64,000 bases of DNA from the NCBI GenBank assembly GCA_964551995.1, contig CAZKFD010000004.1, positions 45,762-109,761 of the forward strand, read 5' to 3'. Shown piece by piece: positions 1 to 4,918 of the stretch; the first letter of the stretch is position 1, and the number at the start of each line of letters is the position of its first letter. This stretch comes from an uncultured Eubacteriales bacterium. Its GTDB lineage: Bacteria; Acidobacteriota; Aminicenantia; Aminicenantales; Saccharicenantaceae. The translations under genes and the position numbers were made by a program. The notes under the pieces were generated by a model. It did no database searches. It saw only the letters and a program-made list of their open reading frames with translations, and was not told where the DNA came from.

Positions 1-686
1 AATCCATCGAGAAGAACCATCCCGAGATCTTCCTGATCGTCCTGCTAATTGCCGAGCGGCCCGAGGAGGTCACCGATTTCCGCAGGAGCGTCAACGGCGA
101 GGTCGTGGCCTCGACGTTCGACGAACCGCCGACCCGGAACGCCCAGGTCGCGAACGTTGTCCTCGAGAAGGCCAAGCGCCTGGTGGAGATCAAGCGGGAC
201 GTCGTCATCCTGCTCGATTCGATCACGCGGCTGGCCCGGGCCCACAACGCCATCGTCCCACCCTCGGGGAAGGTTCTGTCGGGCGGCATCGATGCCAACG
301 CGCTCCATAAGCCGAAAAAATTCTTCGGCTCCGCACGAAAAGTCGAGGAAGGCGGCAGCCTCACGATCCTGGCCACGGCCCTGGTGGATACCGGAAGCCG
401 GATGGACGAAGTCATCTTCGAGGAATTCAAGGGCACGGGCAACATGGAGATCAACCTCGACCGGCGGCTCGTCGACAAGCGGGTCTTCCCGGCCATCGAC
501 ATCAGCCGGTCGGGCACCCGGAAAGAGGAGCTTCTGATCGAGGAGGCGGACCTCAATCGTATCTGGGTCCTGCGCAAGGTCCTGAGCCAGATGAACGAGG
601 TCGAGGCCGTCGAGCTCCTGATCGACAAGCTGAGCAAGACCAAGACCAACCAGGACTTCCTGGCGGCCATGAGCAAGGCCCTCTGA
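1..686 (+). CDS. rho: Transcription termination factor Rho (C-terminal part; gene starts before the window)
   Basis: Motifs [72 protein letters not shown]; open frame from position 3 to TGA at 684-686. Confidence 0.97.
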
Positions 687-728
687 GGCCAGCCTCAGGC
701 CCCCCGGGGGTTTCCGCCGCAAGGCGGC
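683..728 (+). terminator. Short GC hairpins right after rho (CTGAGG-CCAG-CCTCAG; CCGCC-GCAA-GGCGG), possible terminator or stabiliser
   Basis: Inverted repeats seen directly, one with a GNRA loop; no clear U-tract. Confidence 0.3.
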
Positions 729-1076
729 TCGCCCAAAGATTGTGAATCGTTGGGGGAGGGGTCCGGTTTTTGGGAGCTCCATAATCGGATGCCGGGGAAA
801 AAACCCTCCGAAGAGCGGCTGACCGAAGTCGAAGCAGATGAAATTTAGGATCCGGGGAAGAGGAATCTGCTGTGGCTGGGCCTTACCGAGCCATAAGACA
901 GGCCGGGAAGAGGGACATATGGCGTGGCGGCGGGAAGCGGGCATGCCGTCGCGTGGAGGCCGTTCTCTCAAGCGACCTTTCCACAGTTGCACAAGGTTTG
1001 GTCAGGCCGGAATTCCACAGGATGAGGAAAAACGTATCTTATTGATCCGGAACCGGATTAGAGAAATGCCGGGATT

Positions 1077-1104
1077 GAGTCGCATAAGATATATTATGTA
1101 AACT
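1077..1104 (+). other. dif: dif-like XerCD recombination site (chromosome dimer resolution site)
   Basis: GAGTCGCATAA-GATATA-TTATGTAAACT has the 11-6-11 layout with inner CATAA/TTATG symmetry. The left arm resembles the E. coli XerC arm (GGTGCGCATAA) and the right arm matches the B. subtilis dif arm TTATGTAAACT. It lies in AT-rich intergenic DNA. Confidence 0.85.
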
Positions 1105-1208
1105 AATGCATGGCAGAGCCTAACCCATAATTATGCCACCGCGAAAAATTGCCCCTTAGTTCTCCTCACACCCTCCACAATCCCCACGCGCCTTTGATTT
1201 TATAAGGA

Positions 1209-2045
1209 TCAGTCCCGCGACTTCAGCTTCTGTATGATTTCTTCCAGGATCTGAATGATTTCCTGCTTGCTGACGGTCTGCTTCTTGAATTCAAGTCTCA
1301 TACGGTACTTGTCGCTATCTTCGGGGACGAAGTTATACACGTAGAATTTGATTTTCTTAGTCTTTCCCTTGAGATATTTGGCGAGGTCTCTCGTGTCTTC
1401 GCGTGTCAGGTGGCGCTCGGCGATCTCCTTGGCCAGCTTTTGCATGTCATCGGCCGTCTTCTGCTTAGCGATTTCAATGATGGTGGTCCGGCTGAACATC
1501 CCTGAGCCTTTGATGATGTCGCGAACGGCGGCCGGGATCTTGGTAATGGATAGGATTTCGGTTATGGTCGACCGGGCCTTGCCGATCTTCTCAGAAATCT
1601 GCTGGTGGTTGTATCCGTAGAGCGAAATCAGGGATTGGAGGCCGTCGGCTTCCTCGAAGATATCGAGGTCCTTACGCTGGAGGTTTTCGATGAGCGCGAT
1701 CTCCATGGCCTCGTTTTCCTGGACGTCCATCTCGATGCACGGGATTTCCCTGAGGCCGATATTCTTGGAGGCGATATACCTCCGCTCTCCGGCGATGATC
1801 TCGAAGCGGTTAGCCTTGGAGCGGACGAGGATGGGCTCGAGGATGCCCTTAATCCGGATGGAATCCATGAGCTCCTGGATATTGCCGAGTTCGCTTCGCG
1901 CCTGGTGCGGATTCGGGTCGATGTGCTCTATGGGGATCATGCGAATCCTCGGGCCCATGGAGCGTGAGGATATCAGGTCAACGAAATGGCCGTTGTGTTT
2001 CATGCCCACGGTTTCTGGAAGGCCGGATTTCTTAATTTTTTGCAC
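1209..2045 (-). CDS. parB: ParB/Spo0J-family CTPase partition protein (atypical N-terminus and recognition helix)
   Basis: PNPHQAR, GILEPILVR, IIAGERRY (CTP motif), ALIENLQRKDL and an HTH. GTG start at 2045 (VQKIKKSGLPE) overlaps the parA stop. Confidence 0.9.
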   Translation of the reverse strand: MQKIKKSGLPETVGMKHNGHFVDLISSRSMGPRIRMIPIEHIDPNPHQARSELGNIQELMDSIRIKGILEPILVRSKANRFEIIAGERRYIASKNIGLREIPCIEMDVQENEAMEIALIENLQRKDLDIFEEADGLQSLISLYGYNHQQISEKIGKARSTITEILSITKIPAAVRDIIKGSGMFSRTTIIEIAKQKTADDMQKLAKEIAERHLTREDTRDLAKYLKGKTKKIKFYVYNFVPEDSDKYRMRLEFKKQTVSKQEIIQILEEIIQKLKSRD

Positions 2046-2796
2046 GTTCCAATATCTCCTCGGCGACTTTCCGGTACTGCTCCGCGCCAATTGAGGCCGG
2101 AGCATAGGTGAAGATCGATTCCTTGTAGGCCGGGCTCTCCTCGAGCTTGACGCTCTTGGAGATGTAGGTCTTGAAAAGCTTGTTGCCGAAGACACGGCGG
2201 ATTCGCTCGACGACGTCGCGAGCCAGATTGGTACGCTTGTCATGAAGGGTGATCAGCACGCCCAGGATCTTGAGCTGCGGATTGGCGATCCGTCGGACTT
2301 TTTCGATTGTCTCCAGGAGGTCGTCTGTGCCTTCGAGGCACAAATAAGACGACTGGATCGGGATCAGGATCCAGGAGGCGGCGACCAGGGCGTTCAGAGT
2401 TATGAGCCCTAGAGTCGGCGGCGTGTCGATAAAAATATATTGGTACTTGTTCTTGATGGATTCCACAGCGTCCTTTAGGCGGAAATGGCCGTCGATTTCG
2501 CCCAGAAGAGAAGGCTCAAGCTTGGCCATGGAGATCTTGGCTATGGCCAGGTCAAGGCCGGGGATTGTTGAATGGACGATGACGCTGTCGATCTTCTCAT
2601 GCTTGTTCATAAGAACGTCGAAGAGGGATTTTTCGTACGAGGAAGGATTAGCCACGGTGGAGATCGTGCTGTGGGCTTGAGGGTCCATGTCGATAAGGAG
2701 GACCTTTTTGCCGATCAGCGCCAGCGCCGCTGAAATGTTGATTGATGTTGTGGTCTTGCCCACTCCGCCTTTTTGATTTGTGATCGCGATGATCAA
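2032..2796 (-). CDS. parA: ParA/Soj-family ATPase
   Basis: Deviant Walker A NQKGGVGKTT, LLIDMDPQ, IFIDTPPTLG, NALVAA. TTG start at 2796 follows a GGAGGGAGG RBS. Confidence 0.93.
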   Translation of the reverse strand: MIIAITNQKGGVGKTTTSINISAALALIGKKVLLIDMDPQAHSTISTVANPSSYEKSLFDVLMNKHEKIDSVIVHSTIPGLDLAIAKISMAKLEPSLLGEIDGHFRLKDAVESIKNKYQYIFIDTPPTLGLITLNALVAASWILIPIQSSYLCLEGTDDLLETIEKVRRIANPQLKILGVLITLHDKRTNLARDVVERIRRVFGNKLFKTYISKSVKLEESPAYKESIFTYAPASIGAEQYRKVAEEILERAKN

Positions 2797-2837
2797 CAGA
2801 CTGCCTCCCTCCGCGCCATTTTTATTCGGAGACAACA

Positions 2838-2866
2838 TTTATAGCCAAAGGAAATATCAATTGCAA
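2838..2866 (-). promoter_or_regulatory. Putative sigma70 promoter of parAB (TTGCAA-17-TATAAA)
   Basis: -35/-10-like hexamers at 17-bp spacing on the minus strand, about 40 nt before the start. Confidence 0.5.
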
Positions 2867-2893
2867 GGGAATTCTATAAAACGCAAGAACGGT

Positions 2894-2915
2894 AAATGTC
2901 GGCGTGCCGACATTT
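2894..2915. promoter_or_regulatory. Inverted repeat AAATGTCGGC-GT-GCCGACATTT; candidate non-canonical parS or parAB operator
   Basis: 10-bp perfect arms with a 2-bp spacer. The 16-bp core begins TGT and ends ACA like canonical parS (TGTTTCACGTGAAACA). Located just upstream of the parA promoter. Confidence 0.55.
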
Positions 2916-3505
2916 TCGATAAATGGTTGAAAAATAATAATAAATGCGGTCGCGAGGGATGATACATATAACACATGATAGAGCAGAAATCGGTCTGACC
3001 GAGATAAGATCTAGGAATAAGGAATCCGACGGGAGTTCGGGTCTGCGGCGACGCCAACAATCTGCATGGCCTCGTCAGGCGTTAATGGGCGGAAAGGAGA
3101 TTCATGGGGGCATAAGATATAGGATAAGAAAAAGAATTAAAATGGGAGAGCTGGGGAGACGAGCGAGTGTGCGGGGAAGTGCATAGTCACGAAGCAATCG
3201 GCAAACAGGGATGGTGAAATAATATATAAAAAATAGCGAATGATAGAAAAAACGGAGAATCGGCGACTCCCCTGCTTTTATGTGGGAGCGGTCGATCCTA
3301 GGGCAAAGAATATCAAGGAGCACAAGAGCTAAACAGAAACCAGGGTATCTGATTTAATATCAACGAGATAGTCGCTAATAAAAACGGCTCGATAGATTAT
3401 AAGTTATAGATAATAAAGGAAATACAAACAACGACAAGCCGATAAGGATGGTTAAAAAAAAGTTCCCCAGGCGGAAAAATTTCTGTAAAATGGGGCAGGT
3501 TGGAG

Positions 3506-4918
3506 ATGTGTGCCAAAGCGCAGGAAACTCAATTCGACCGCAGGATGAACCTTGCGGACACGGCGTTTCTTGTCGTAGGCGCGGTCGTCGGGTCGGGGAT
3601 ATTCTTGACGCCCGGCCTGATCGCGGCAAGGCTCCCTTCGCCGGGGCTGTTGCTCGGGGTTTGGGTCGGTGGGGGGCTAGTAACTCTTTGCGGGGCCCTC
3701 ACGTTTGCCGAGCTGGGGGCCATGTATCCACAGGCCGGCGGTCAATACATTTACCTGCGCGAGGCCTACGGGGCAGGCGCCGCCTTCCTCTTCGGCTGGG
3801 GCTTCTTTGGTTTCATCATGTGCGGAGGGCTGGCGGCGCTGGCCGTGGCTTTCGCCGAATTCCTGGGGTCTTTCATTCCCGCCCTGTCGACCACTGCGCC
3901 CCTTCTCAGGATGACGGTTTTAGGCCTCCCGTATTCCCTATCGGCCGGACAGGTCGTGGCTGCGGCGTCCATCCTGCTCCTGACGCTGGTGAACTCCTTC
4001 GGAATACGCTCCGGCATTGCGGTCCAGAACCTGCTGACCGTCTTCCGGATCGGCGCCGTCGTGGCCATCGTCGGGCTGGGCATCCTCATCGGGAAGAAAT
4101 CGGGCGGCGCGAACTTCAGCCATCTTTTCGGGGGTGGCCTGAGATGGTCGGAGATCCTCAAGCCTCTGGGGCTGGGCCTTGTCGCCGTGTTCTGGACTTA
4201 CGACGGCTGGTACTCGGTGAACTGCACGGCGGAGGAAATCCGGGATCCGGAAAGGAACATCCCCCGGGGCCTGATGCTGGGCGTGGCCATGGTCACCGTC
4301 CTCTACGTTTCGGCCAACCTGGTCTATCTCCTTGCGCTCCCGTACGATAAGATAAAGGGCGTCGTCAGGGTCGGCGAGATGGCTTCGACGGCCCTCTTCG
4401 GAGGGGACGTGAGCACGGCCATTTGCGCGGTCATCATGGTCTCCGTCTTCGGCTGCTTGAACGCCAACCTTCTTTTCGGTCCCAGGGTCTATTACGCCAT
4501 GGCCAAAGATGGGAGCTTCTTCCGTTCCATGGCCCGCCTCAGCCCGCGGTTCCGGGTCCCTTCGAGGGCGCTCTGGGGGCAAGCCGCCTGGTCCGCAGTT
4601 CTCTGTCTTTCAGGGACCTACGAGGCGCTTTATGAGTACATGGTGTTCGCTCTGCTTGTCTTCTTCGCGGCAACCGGCCTGTCGGTCATCGTCCTGCGCC
4701 GGACCCGGCCGCACCTTGGCCGGCCGTACAGGACATGGGGCTATCCCATCGTTCCCGCGGTCTTCATTTTGGTCAGCTTGGCCATCTTCCTGAACATCCT
4801 CTACTCCCAACCGCTCAAGTCCGCCGCCGGAGTCCTCCTCCTGGGGGCCGGGCTGCCGGCCTATCGTCTCTGGACCAGGCGGCGCCCGGACTTCTGCCGG
4901 GAAGCTAAAAAAGTATAG
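3506..4918 (+). CDS. APC-family amino acid/polyamine/organocation permease
   Basis: About 12 TM segments; VGSGIFLTP, FAELGAMYPQAGGQYIYLREAYG, WTYDGW, EEIRDPERNIP, RPYRTWGYP. Confidence 0.92.
   Translation: MCAKAQETQFDRRMNLADTAFLVVGAVVGSGIFLTPGLIAARLPSPGLLLGVWVGGGLVTLCGALTFAELGAMYPQAGGQYIYLREAYGAGAAFLFGWGFFGFIMCGGLAALAVAFAEFLGSFIPALSTTAPLLRMTVLGLPYSLSAGQVVAAASILLLTLVNSFGIRSGIAVQNLLTVFRIGAVVAIVGLGILIGKKSGGANFSHLFGGGLRWSEILKPLGLGLVAVFWTYDGWYSVNCTAEEIRDPERNIPRGLMLGVAMVTVLYVSANLVYLLALPYDKIKGVVRVGEMASTALFGGDVSTAICAVIMVSVFGCLNANLLFGPRVYYAMAKDGSFFRSMARLSPRFRVPSRALWGQAAWSAVLCLSGTYEALYEYMVFALLVFFAATGLSVIVLRRTRPHLGRPYRTWGYPIVPAVFILVSLAIFLNILYSQPLKSAAGVLLLGAGLPAYRLWTRRRPDFCREAKKV

Follow-up and report, generated by a model that had tools for sequence, protein, structure and literature searches.

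A predicted second ParABS system next to dif at the replication terminus of Aminicenantes chromosomes

What would a partition system be doing beside dif? To our knowledge, chromosomal parS sites lie near the origin in comparative surveys and in all studied models, and the only known means of actively handling the terminus are pumping by FtsK and unrelated factors of restricted lineage, such as MatP. The question is raised by a locus in a 64,000-nucleotide stretch of DNA (hereafter the window; positions 45762-109761 of contig C4) from an Aminicenantes metagenome-assembled genome (MAG), called G000, of 2.99 Mb in 35 contigs and 92.7% completeness. There, a parA-parB pair, here named parAB2, lies between a parS-shaped palindrome (parS2) and a dif site. 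An initial annotation, made from the letters of the window, had proposed that these form a second ParABS dedicated to the terminus. Its positions for dif, parB, parA and the palindrome were all correct, and the start of parB2 was revised to the GTG at 2045. In sequence, the locus was shown to hold a complete, conserved and orthogonal ParABS, with a single predicted site about 1.8 kb from dif at the terminus, and to do so throughout the Aminicenantes. We refer to this system as ParABS2.

Two parAB pairs on one chromosome

A profile search of the genome placed ParB_N matches at two loci only, the one in the window and another at C13:106 kb. The pair on C13 (parAB1) is followed by mnmG, mnmE and yidC and lies 38 kb from dnaA. 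Directly upstream of parA1, at C13:107450-107465, is a near-canonical parS-like palindrome (14 of 16 positions), the only one in the assembly at up to two mismatches. Since the C13 pair is canonical and near dnaA, the pair in the window is the second, divergent one; a canonical parAB near the origin is what the initial annotation had named as support for its proposal. ParB1 also lies 47-56 kb from dnaA in the closed Aminicenantes genomes G039, G027 and G025. In addition, 41 genomes of the same order were searched for ParB2 orthologues (the order sample), and a canonical ParB, about 30-37% identical, was present in every one of them as well. At the level of sequence, both parAB pairs of the chromosome were shown to be complete and to have a 16-bp palindrome of their own.

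ParB2 was matched above the cut-off by Pfam ParB_N (90 bits, 1e-25) and HTH_ParB (55 bits, 7e-15) and by the NCBIfam model parB_part (140 bits). The CTPase motifs GERR (residues 86-89) and ENLQR (120-124), which had been reported as retained, are invariant in 14 orthologues. By sequence, its best solved relatives are chromosomal ParBs and Noc, with the ParB of M. xanthus (7BNK, 1.7e-35) at the top. An AlphaFold (AF2) model built on the 14 orthologues (predicted local distance difference test, pLDDT, 74) shows a ParB N-domain, a helix-turn-helix (HTH) and a small C-terminal beta-beta-alpha domain behind 31 disordered N-terminal residues. The top Foldseek matches of this model were ParB and Noc clamps, among them the ParB-parS structure 6T1F (template-modelling, TM, score 0.86 by target length). 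With invariant CTPase motifs, and with a sequence and predicted fold most like those of chromosomal ParB clamps, ParB2 is probably a working ParB.

The two ParBs of the chromosome are 27% identical in one alignment and 32% over the local match. In a maximum-likelihood tree of 18 ParB2 and six ParB1 sequences, rooted at the midpoint without an outgroup, they formed separate clades with 100/100 support, which marks them as old paralogues. The recognition-helix region reads GKARSTITEI[LI] in ParB2 versus GKDRTSVTNYIRLL in ParB1; the initial annotation had noticed that this helix departs from those of canonical parS binders, and the difference is consistent with a changed DNA specificity. At the N-terminus, the LG[RK]GL-type motif of ParB1 is replaced across the ParB2 clade by [KR][KR]-x-GLP-x4-MRHD-x-H-[FY]-V. 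The earlier description of this end as non-canonical was right, but the end is not featureless, as it carries a basic motif conserved clade-wide. ParA2 is a Soj-type short ParA ATPase with an NQKGGVGKTT Walker A (KGGVGKT) near its N-terminus; it matched Pfam CbiA (6e-26) in addition to AAA_31, and is 39-40% identical to ParA1.

The homologues returned by searches with ParB2 were named only generically ("ParB family") and did not extend the taxonomic range past the Acidobacteriota, and a search of the ESM Atlas with its C-terminal part returned unnamed clusters, mostly from Acidobacteriota, and no usable lead. A plasmid collection held only distant ParBs, all below 60% identity, and those listed were 33-40% identical, over the central domains only. 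The locus itself sits on a 215-kb contig with rho and not on a plasmid, in agreement with the chromosomal setting proposed at first. Contigs from a peat metatranscriptome that are identical to positions 1544-1694 and 1725-1867 (parB2) and 2625-2811 (parA2) give a weak hint that parAB2 is expressed; the stretches of the window that RNA contigs leave uncovered (run X3) are uninformative.

The palindrome, dif and the replication terminus

The elements of the locus run in the order parS2-parA2-parB2-dif, so that the operon reads towards dif (Table 1). The stop codon of parB2 occupies positions 1209-1211, with exactly 104 bp between it and dif, and parA2, whose TTG start is preceded by GGAGG, overlaps the start of parB2 by 14 nt.

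With its full arms the palindrome reads AAATGTCGGC-gt-GCCGACATTT and lies about 100 bp upstream of the parA2 start. Its 16-bp core has a single exact copy in the G000 assembly, and the exact palindrome occurs once per closed Aminicenantes genome, each time at parA2. Among 20 loci from other families of the order, the core TGTCGGCNNGCCGACA upstream of parA2 was exact in 17 and had one mismatch in three. A scan of public genomes, one per species, provided 80 loci, namely the 51 closest, labelled mostly Candidatus Aminicenantes, and 29 from other Acidobacteriota classes; these are partly the same contigs as the loci of the order sample, and the whole amounts to at least 70 distinct sequences. The core was exact in 43 and had one mismatch in two of the 45 public loci with enough upstream flank. 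The parS-shaped palindrome first seen in the window has been kept in all relatives examined. In 14 of the 29 loci from other classes it lies inside parB2, some 520-537 nt from the start of the gene, a position more in keeping with a loading site than with a promoter operator only. Having the length of a parS, occurring as one copy per genome and accompanying ParB2 across classes, parS2 is the predicted cognate site of ParB2.

The dif site has the layout of a XerCD target, in which a 6-bp centre separates 11-bp arms that show inner dyad symmetry; its XerD arm lies towards parB2, and the site is presumably similar to the dif of model organisms. Across the distinct sequences the arms are kept (GTCGCATAA...TTATGTMAACT) and the central hexamer varies. 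A better dif elsewhere would, by the initial annotation, have spoken against its proposal; in the assembly, at its 92.7% completeness, no other match to the 28-mer was found at up to eight mismatches. Genes for the expected partners are encoded on contigs other than that of the window: XerD (366 bits on the XerD model, C28), an XerC-like paralogue (321 bits on the same model, C13) and an FtsK with a gamma domain (FtsK_gamma, 99.6 bits, C15). No tyrosine-recombinase match was found inside the window.

Four closed Aminicenantes genomes were used to measure the shorter arc between dif and dnaA. This arc was 48.2% of the chromosome in G039 (3,311,678 bp), 46.1% in G027 (4,309,361 bp), 43.0% in G025 (4,072,281 bp) and 40.7% in G043 (4,351,283 bp), so that the terminal position predicted for the dif/parB2 locus was found in all four (41-48% of the chromosome from dnaA). 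Neither G041 nor G042 is a closed genome, and their rough ParB2-dnaA arcs were left out of the counts. Scans for the dif pattern gave a single match in G039 and no match in G041 and G045. GC skew inversion at dif was sampled in two genomes. In G039, mean skew was +0.011 along the arc from dnaA to dif and -0.010 along the opposite arc (forty 20-kb samples, Mann-Whitney p = 0.014). Within 200 kb on each side of dif it was +0.018 to the left and -0.017 to the right (p = 0.0013), and the cumulative maximum fell 38 kb from dif. In G115, which belongs to another class, skew was +0.029 and -0.019 (p = 0.0008), with positive values in 10 of 10 bins to the left of the dif-like site and negative values in nine of 10 to its right, and the cumulative maximum fell 8 kb from the site. 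The locus lies at the replication terminus.

Table 1. Features of the ParABS2 locus, given in positions of the window.
Feature	Position	Strand	Remarks
rho, 3' part	3..686	+	Pfam ATP-synt_ab 5.9e-16; convergent with parB2; chromosomal context on the XerC side of dif
Conserved XerC-side block, about 100 bp	978..1076	+	DnaA-box-like octamers; position profile conserved on this side of dif only
dif	1077..1104	+	XerC arm GAGTCGCATAA, centre GATATA, XerD arm TTATGTAAACT
parB2, 278 aa, GTG start at 2045	1209..2045	-	Pfam ParB_N and HTH_ParB
parA2, 254 aa from TTG at 2796	2032..2796 (open reading frame to 2838)	-	Pfam AAA_31 1.7e-55
parS2, predicted, 16-bp palindrome TGTCGGCGTGCCGACA	2897..2912 (arms 2894-2915)	.	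Conserved upstream of parA2
Partial second dif copy	3105..3132	+	Exact 12-mer GCATAAGATATA at 3110-3121

Conservation within and beyond the Aminicenantes

Full-length orthologues of ParB2 were found in 40 of the 41 genomes of the order sample, at 59-81% identity; the miss, G035, is an 83% complete genome. Wherever a locus extends far enough, parA2 directly precedes parB2. A dif site just past the parB2 stop, with its XerD arm facing parB2, was present in 20 of 20 loci of the same family and in 20 of 20 from other families, and 50 of the 51 closest public loci have it 22-253 bp past the ParB2 match, the exception having 2 bp of flank. The linkage that had been suggested from a single locus therefore holds in Aminicenantes, within about 20-250 bp of parB2, wherever the flank suffices. 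Since the dif arms, the palindrome and the gene order are kept in all relatives examined, the arrangement is more than chance.

On the dif side, rho C-termini with 86-98% identity are found in many relatives, often convergent and 0.3-4 kb away; on the parA2 side, the neighbours vary among relatives. GC content is 44-56% over approximately 1050-3500 and 62-69% beyond, which bears out the lower-GC setting described at the outset. In 15 of 16 loci of the order, parAB2 lies below its flanks in GC; low GC is therefore a property of parAB2 across the order and no sign of recent acquisition.

On the XerC side of dif, a stretch of about 100 bp is conserved throughout the order; the XerD side is not conserved. 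This block contains the octamer TTTCCACA at 978-985 (-99 from dif), the sole exact DnaA-box-like sequence in the window, and a one-mismatch version, ATTCCACA, at 1012-1019 (-65). The 160 bp adjoining dif on its XerC side contain T[AT]TCCACA in 48 of 78 distinct loci, in 20 of them at least twice, and its position is almost always close to -99 and/or -65; the background elsewhere in the same loci is 0.006 per 160 bp. In eight loci of other orders or classes it was never found beside dif. The octamer is rare in G000 (67 in 3 Mb), and its only cluster of three or more is directly upstream of dnaA (C13:144370-144392), and for these reasons it looks like the DnaA box of this organism. No Rfam family matched positions 600-3700 at E <= 1, and RNAalifold, applied to 55 of 71 distinct upstream sequences, returned only the dyad of dif itself, with zero covarying pairs. 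The block may serve dif as an accessory or regulatory arm, or it may bind DnaA at the terminus. It resembles the plasmid Xer sites cer and psi, with their accessory sequences, in that conservation over about 100 bp is confined to the XerC side and motifs like protein boxes stand at a fixed distance from the core. It differs from them in belonging to a chromosomal terminus site, in a genome with FtsK-gamma, and in that its motif is DnaA-box-like and not an ArgR or ArcA box.

On the far side of parAB2, G000 carries a partial dif copy that shares the end of the XerC arm and the centre (GCATAAGATATA); the XerD arm is not kept. The copy was seen in G000 only and in none of the 19 relatives examined. 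It could be the scar of a past Xer-mediated event or a product of chance, and it lies outside the conserved module. The surrounding spacer (approximately 2945-3500, about 550 bp, 42-48% GC) contains no open reading frame and separates parS2 from an amino-acid permease gene. It was unmatched in Rfam (2945-3500) and in a phage collection (2920-3500) and is not conserved even in close relatives. The repeat had prompted the idea that the locus arrived as cargo of an integrative mobile element exploiting Xer (IMEX), and the gonococcal genetic island is indeed an IMEX that carries parA and parB beside dif. This origin was rejected: the topology does not fit, the end with the good XerD arm being the wrong one, inheritance of the module is vertical, and an IMEX would call for two bounding dif-like sites and a patchy distribution, where G000 has a 12-bp partial copy that its relatives lack and parAB2 is nearly universal in the order. 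Unlike the gonococcal island, the locus also shows no evident integration or transfer genes.

Across the phylum, a sample of 201 Acidobacteriota genomes from 135 genera was searched at E <= 1e-45. ParB2-like proteins were found in 113 genomes (two of them unpublished) and 90 genera, one per genome, near full length and at 38-53% identity. Five of five closed genomes from other classes have ParB2 at a distance of 41.6-47.6% of the chromosome from dnaA, and their only other ParB is 6-25 kb from dnaA. The ParB2 locus is therefore 40.7-48.2% of the chromosome from dnaA in nine of nine closed genomes and origin-proximal in none; an origin-proximal location is a typical, not a defining, feature of chromosomal ParABS. 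A dif-like site was located 50-800 bp from parB2 in 10 of 15 further genomes that were fetched (five of six from other orders of the class and five of nine from other classes, one in the opposite orientation). The linkage that had been expected across Acidobacteriota was accordingly found in Aminicenantes and in these 10, but in only three of the 29 public loci from other classes. On the sequences sampled, it is the terminus location of ParB2, and not always its adjacency to dif, that was shown to hold across much of the phylum.

A genus from another class has, about 100-150 bp from parB2, a dif-like site that is inverted in G218 (locus L176) and carries a degenerate XerD arm in G227 (L177), which suggests that the linkage between parB2 and dif is decaying there. 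Gene neighbours were annotated for two loci from other classes, L123 (1107-4849) and L099 (1389-4846), of the group L099-L126. In both, parA2-parB2 follows a radical-SAM/TRAM methylthiotransferase-like gene of the MiaB/RimO type and a gene with a bifunctional-nuclease domain.

What ParABS2 may do at the terminus

We favour, with moderate confidence, the reading that ParABS2 is a vertically inherited, terminus-resident ParABS, coupled to the XerCD site dif, that positions or segregates the terminus. The location and conservation foreseen for a second ParABS dedicated to the terminus were found; its part in positioning or segregation stays an inference. In such a system, ParB2 dimers would load at parS2 as CTP-dependent clamps and spread over a few kilobases, dif included. 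Nucleoid-bound ParA2 would then position the single ParB2-parS2 complex as plasmid partition systems do their cargo. While one copy is present it would be held at mid-nucleoid, and dif would thereby be kept at the future septum, where FtsK and XerCD act; after replication of the terminus, and after resolution in the case of a chromosome dimer, the two copies would be pushed away from each other. The block of DnaA-box-like sites that flanks the XerC arm in the Aminicenantales may serve as an accessory or regulatory region.

ParABS2 resembles the chromosomal Soj/Spo0J-parS systems in its short Walker-type ParA, in a ParB composed of CTPase, HTH and C-terminal domains, and in a 16-bp palindrome beside or inside the genes, and the best sequence and fold matches of ParB2 are chromosomal ParBs. 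It differs from them in lying at the terminus beside dif, in coexisting with an origin-proximal pair, in having one site per genome, in the recognition helix and N-terminal peptide of ParB2, and in a palindrome that departs from canonical parS inside the shared outer TGT...ACA. With the ParABS of plasmids and secondary chromosomes, such as Vibrio ParAB2, it shares the state of being a second, orthogonal system with its own site specificity in the same cell, and the equipositioning of low-copy plasmids, which places a single cargo at mid-nucleoid or at the quarters, is the source of the positioning model given here. Unlike in those cases, both systems serve one replicon and ParABS2 marks its terminus; ParB2 is also far from plasmid ParBs, which were less than 40% identical among the matches listed, over central domains only. 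MatP-matS, which organises the Ter macrodomain of enterobacteria, is likewise sequence-specific and dedicated to the terminus and holds dif at mid-cell. The analogy is functional only, since MatP belongs to an unrelated family, has many matS sites over hundreds of kilobases and works without an ATPase motor.

Several points weigh against a positioning and segregating role. Binding of ParB2 to the palindrome, CTP-dependent spreading, stimulation of ParA2 and an effect on the terminus are all inferred, and the N-terminal peptide of ParB2 departs from the canonical ParA-stimulating motif. Partition separates sisters and XerCD needs synapsed sister dif sites, so control of timing would be required. 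The initial annotation had looked for a skew inversion at the locus; the inversion is clear at dif in G039, but the skew of the contig C4 itself is weakly suggestive only, having the right sign without significance (p = 0.29, maximum 21 kb from dif). The RNA contigs come from one library of one study and could reflect DNA carry-over. Genomes of relatives do not count as independent samples, and the linkage to dif in Aminicenantes could partly be inherited synteny, rho being often near. At the cut-off used, 88 of the 201 genomes lack a ParB2-like gene, among them whole families (0 of 16 and 0 of 8), which implies that the system is dispensable in some lineages. Finally, no dif-like site was found within 4 kb of parB2 in 26 of the 29 public loci from other classes, and this, together with the inverted or degenerate sites in the genus of G218 and G227, means that coupling to dif is not universal.

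Of the alternatives, the one that survives best, although we consider it unlikely, is that ParABS2 acts on DNA transactions at dif. ParB2 clamps would recruit, load or block SMC, FtsK, topoisomerase IV or XerCD, and would thereby gate dimer resolution or decatenation, or set a point of SMC loading or unloading on the terminus side. Canonical ParB loads SMC at parS, and in B. subtilis XerD-bound sites unload SMC near the terminus. The placement of parS2 within about 2 kb of dif, in fixed orientation, in all Aminicenantes loci would suit such an activity, as would an accessory-like block conserved on the XerC side only. The distance between parB2 and dif varies (22-253 bp), however, and nothing between them is conserved, which argues against a composite site; a full ParA2 partner, for which a pure loader or roadblock would have no need, is always kept; and most ParB2 loci of other classes are without a dif within 4 kb.

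Less probable again is a device for division-site selection or nucleoid occlusion, similar to MipZ-ParB, Noc or PomXYZ, that takes the terminus as its landmark: mid-cell would be marked by ParB2 at the terminus, and FtsZ or the divisome would be under the control of ParA2. In many bacteria the terminus is at mid-cell at division, ParA2 scores on Pfam MipZ (2.7e-11), and Noc structures are among the best fold matches of ParB2. Like Noc, ParB2 is a ParB paralogue, presumably with an altered palindrome specificity and CTP clamping. Its score on the Noc model (149.6 bits) is nevertheless far under the TIGR04285 cut-off of 315, and ParB1 scores higher (230.8). Noc works without a ParA partner and binds many sites, which avoid the terminus, whereas parS2 is found once per genome, at the terminus. 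ParA2 fits generic ParA models far better than MipZ, and ParA1 matches the same MinD/BcsQ-type NCBIfam models.

It is improbable that the module couples termination to initiation, with the DnaA-box-like sites and ParA2 titrating or regulating DnaA once the terminus has been replicated. ParA proteins do regulate DnaA in B. subtilis and V. cholerae, and both the enrichment of the octamer near -99 and -65 and its cluster upstream of dnaA fall in with such a role. The boxes were found in the order only, however, and are absent from the eight loci elsewhere although ParB2 is terminus-located there too; the window holds one exact box; and the motif, for which no RNA structure or Rfam family accounts, could belong to another protein or a promoter, DnaA binding being a supposition.

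The weakest of the rivals, given the depth of conservation, and a most improbable one, is that an ancient plasmid or IMEX integrated at dif and left the module behind as a relic with no chromosomal role: its low GC, the partial dif copy on its far side in G000 and the general likeness of parABS, a dimer-resolution site with one-sided accessory DNA and DnaA-box-like sites to plasmid maintenance regions would fit such a relic, but the partial copy is absent from all 19 relatives, the catalytic motifs are invariant, no close plasmid relative was found, the spacer is unmatched in the phage collection, the module is inherited vertically across the order and its paralogue across the phylum with identity falling with taxonomic distance, and ancient integration followed by domestication would in any case describe an origin and not a present function.

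Full-text searches of the literature returned no account of a terminus-located ParABS, or of ParB in Aminicenantes; supplementary tables, for example those of dif-prediction surveys, might list such sites. More tentatively than the terminus-resident ParABS itself, we suggest that Acidobacteriota chromosomes may possess two centromeres: an origin ParABS and an ancient, orthogonal ParABS2 that would place dif at the division plane and part the termini, joined in the Aminicenantales by a DnaA-box accessory arm that might link termination, dimer resolution and perhaps re-initiation. As closed genomes in the phylum sample carry the pair, ParABS2 is directly testable. If the proposal is true, ParABS2 would give a phylum that is large and dominant in the environment a new solution for positioning and segregating the terminus, and would be a motor-driven counterpart of MatP known from no model organism. 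It would also provide a natural pair of non-cross-reacting ParB/parS specificities on one chromosome, and a way to approach the coordination of dimer resolution with segregation. The presence of ParABS2 at the terminus suggests that these bacteria have an unstudied way of handling the end of chromosome replication.

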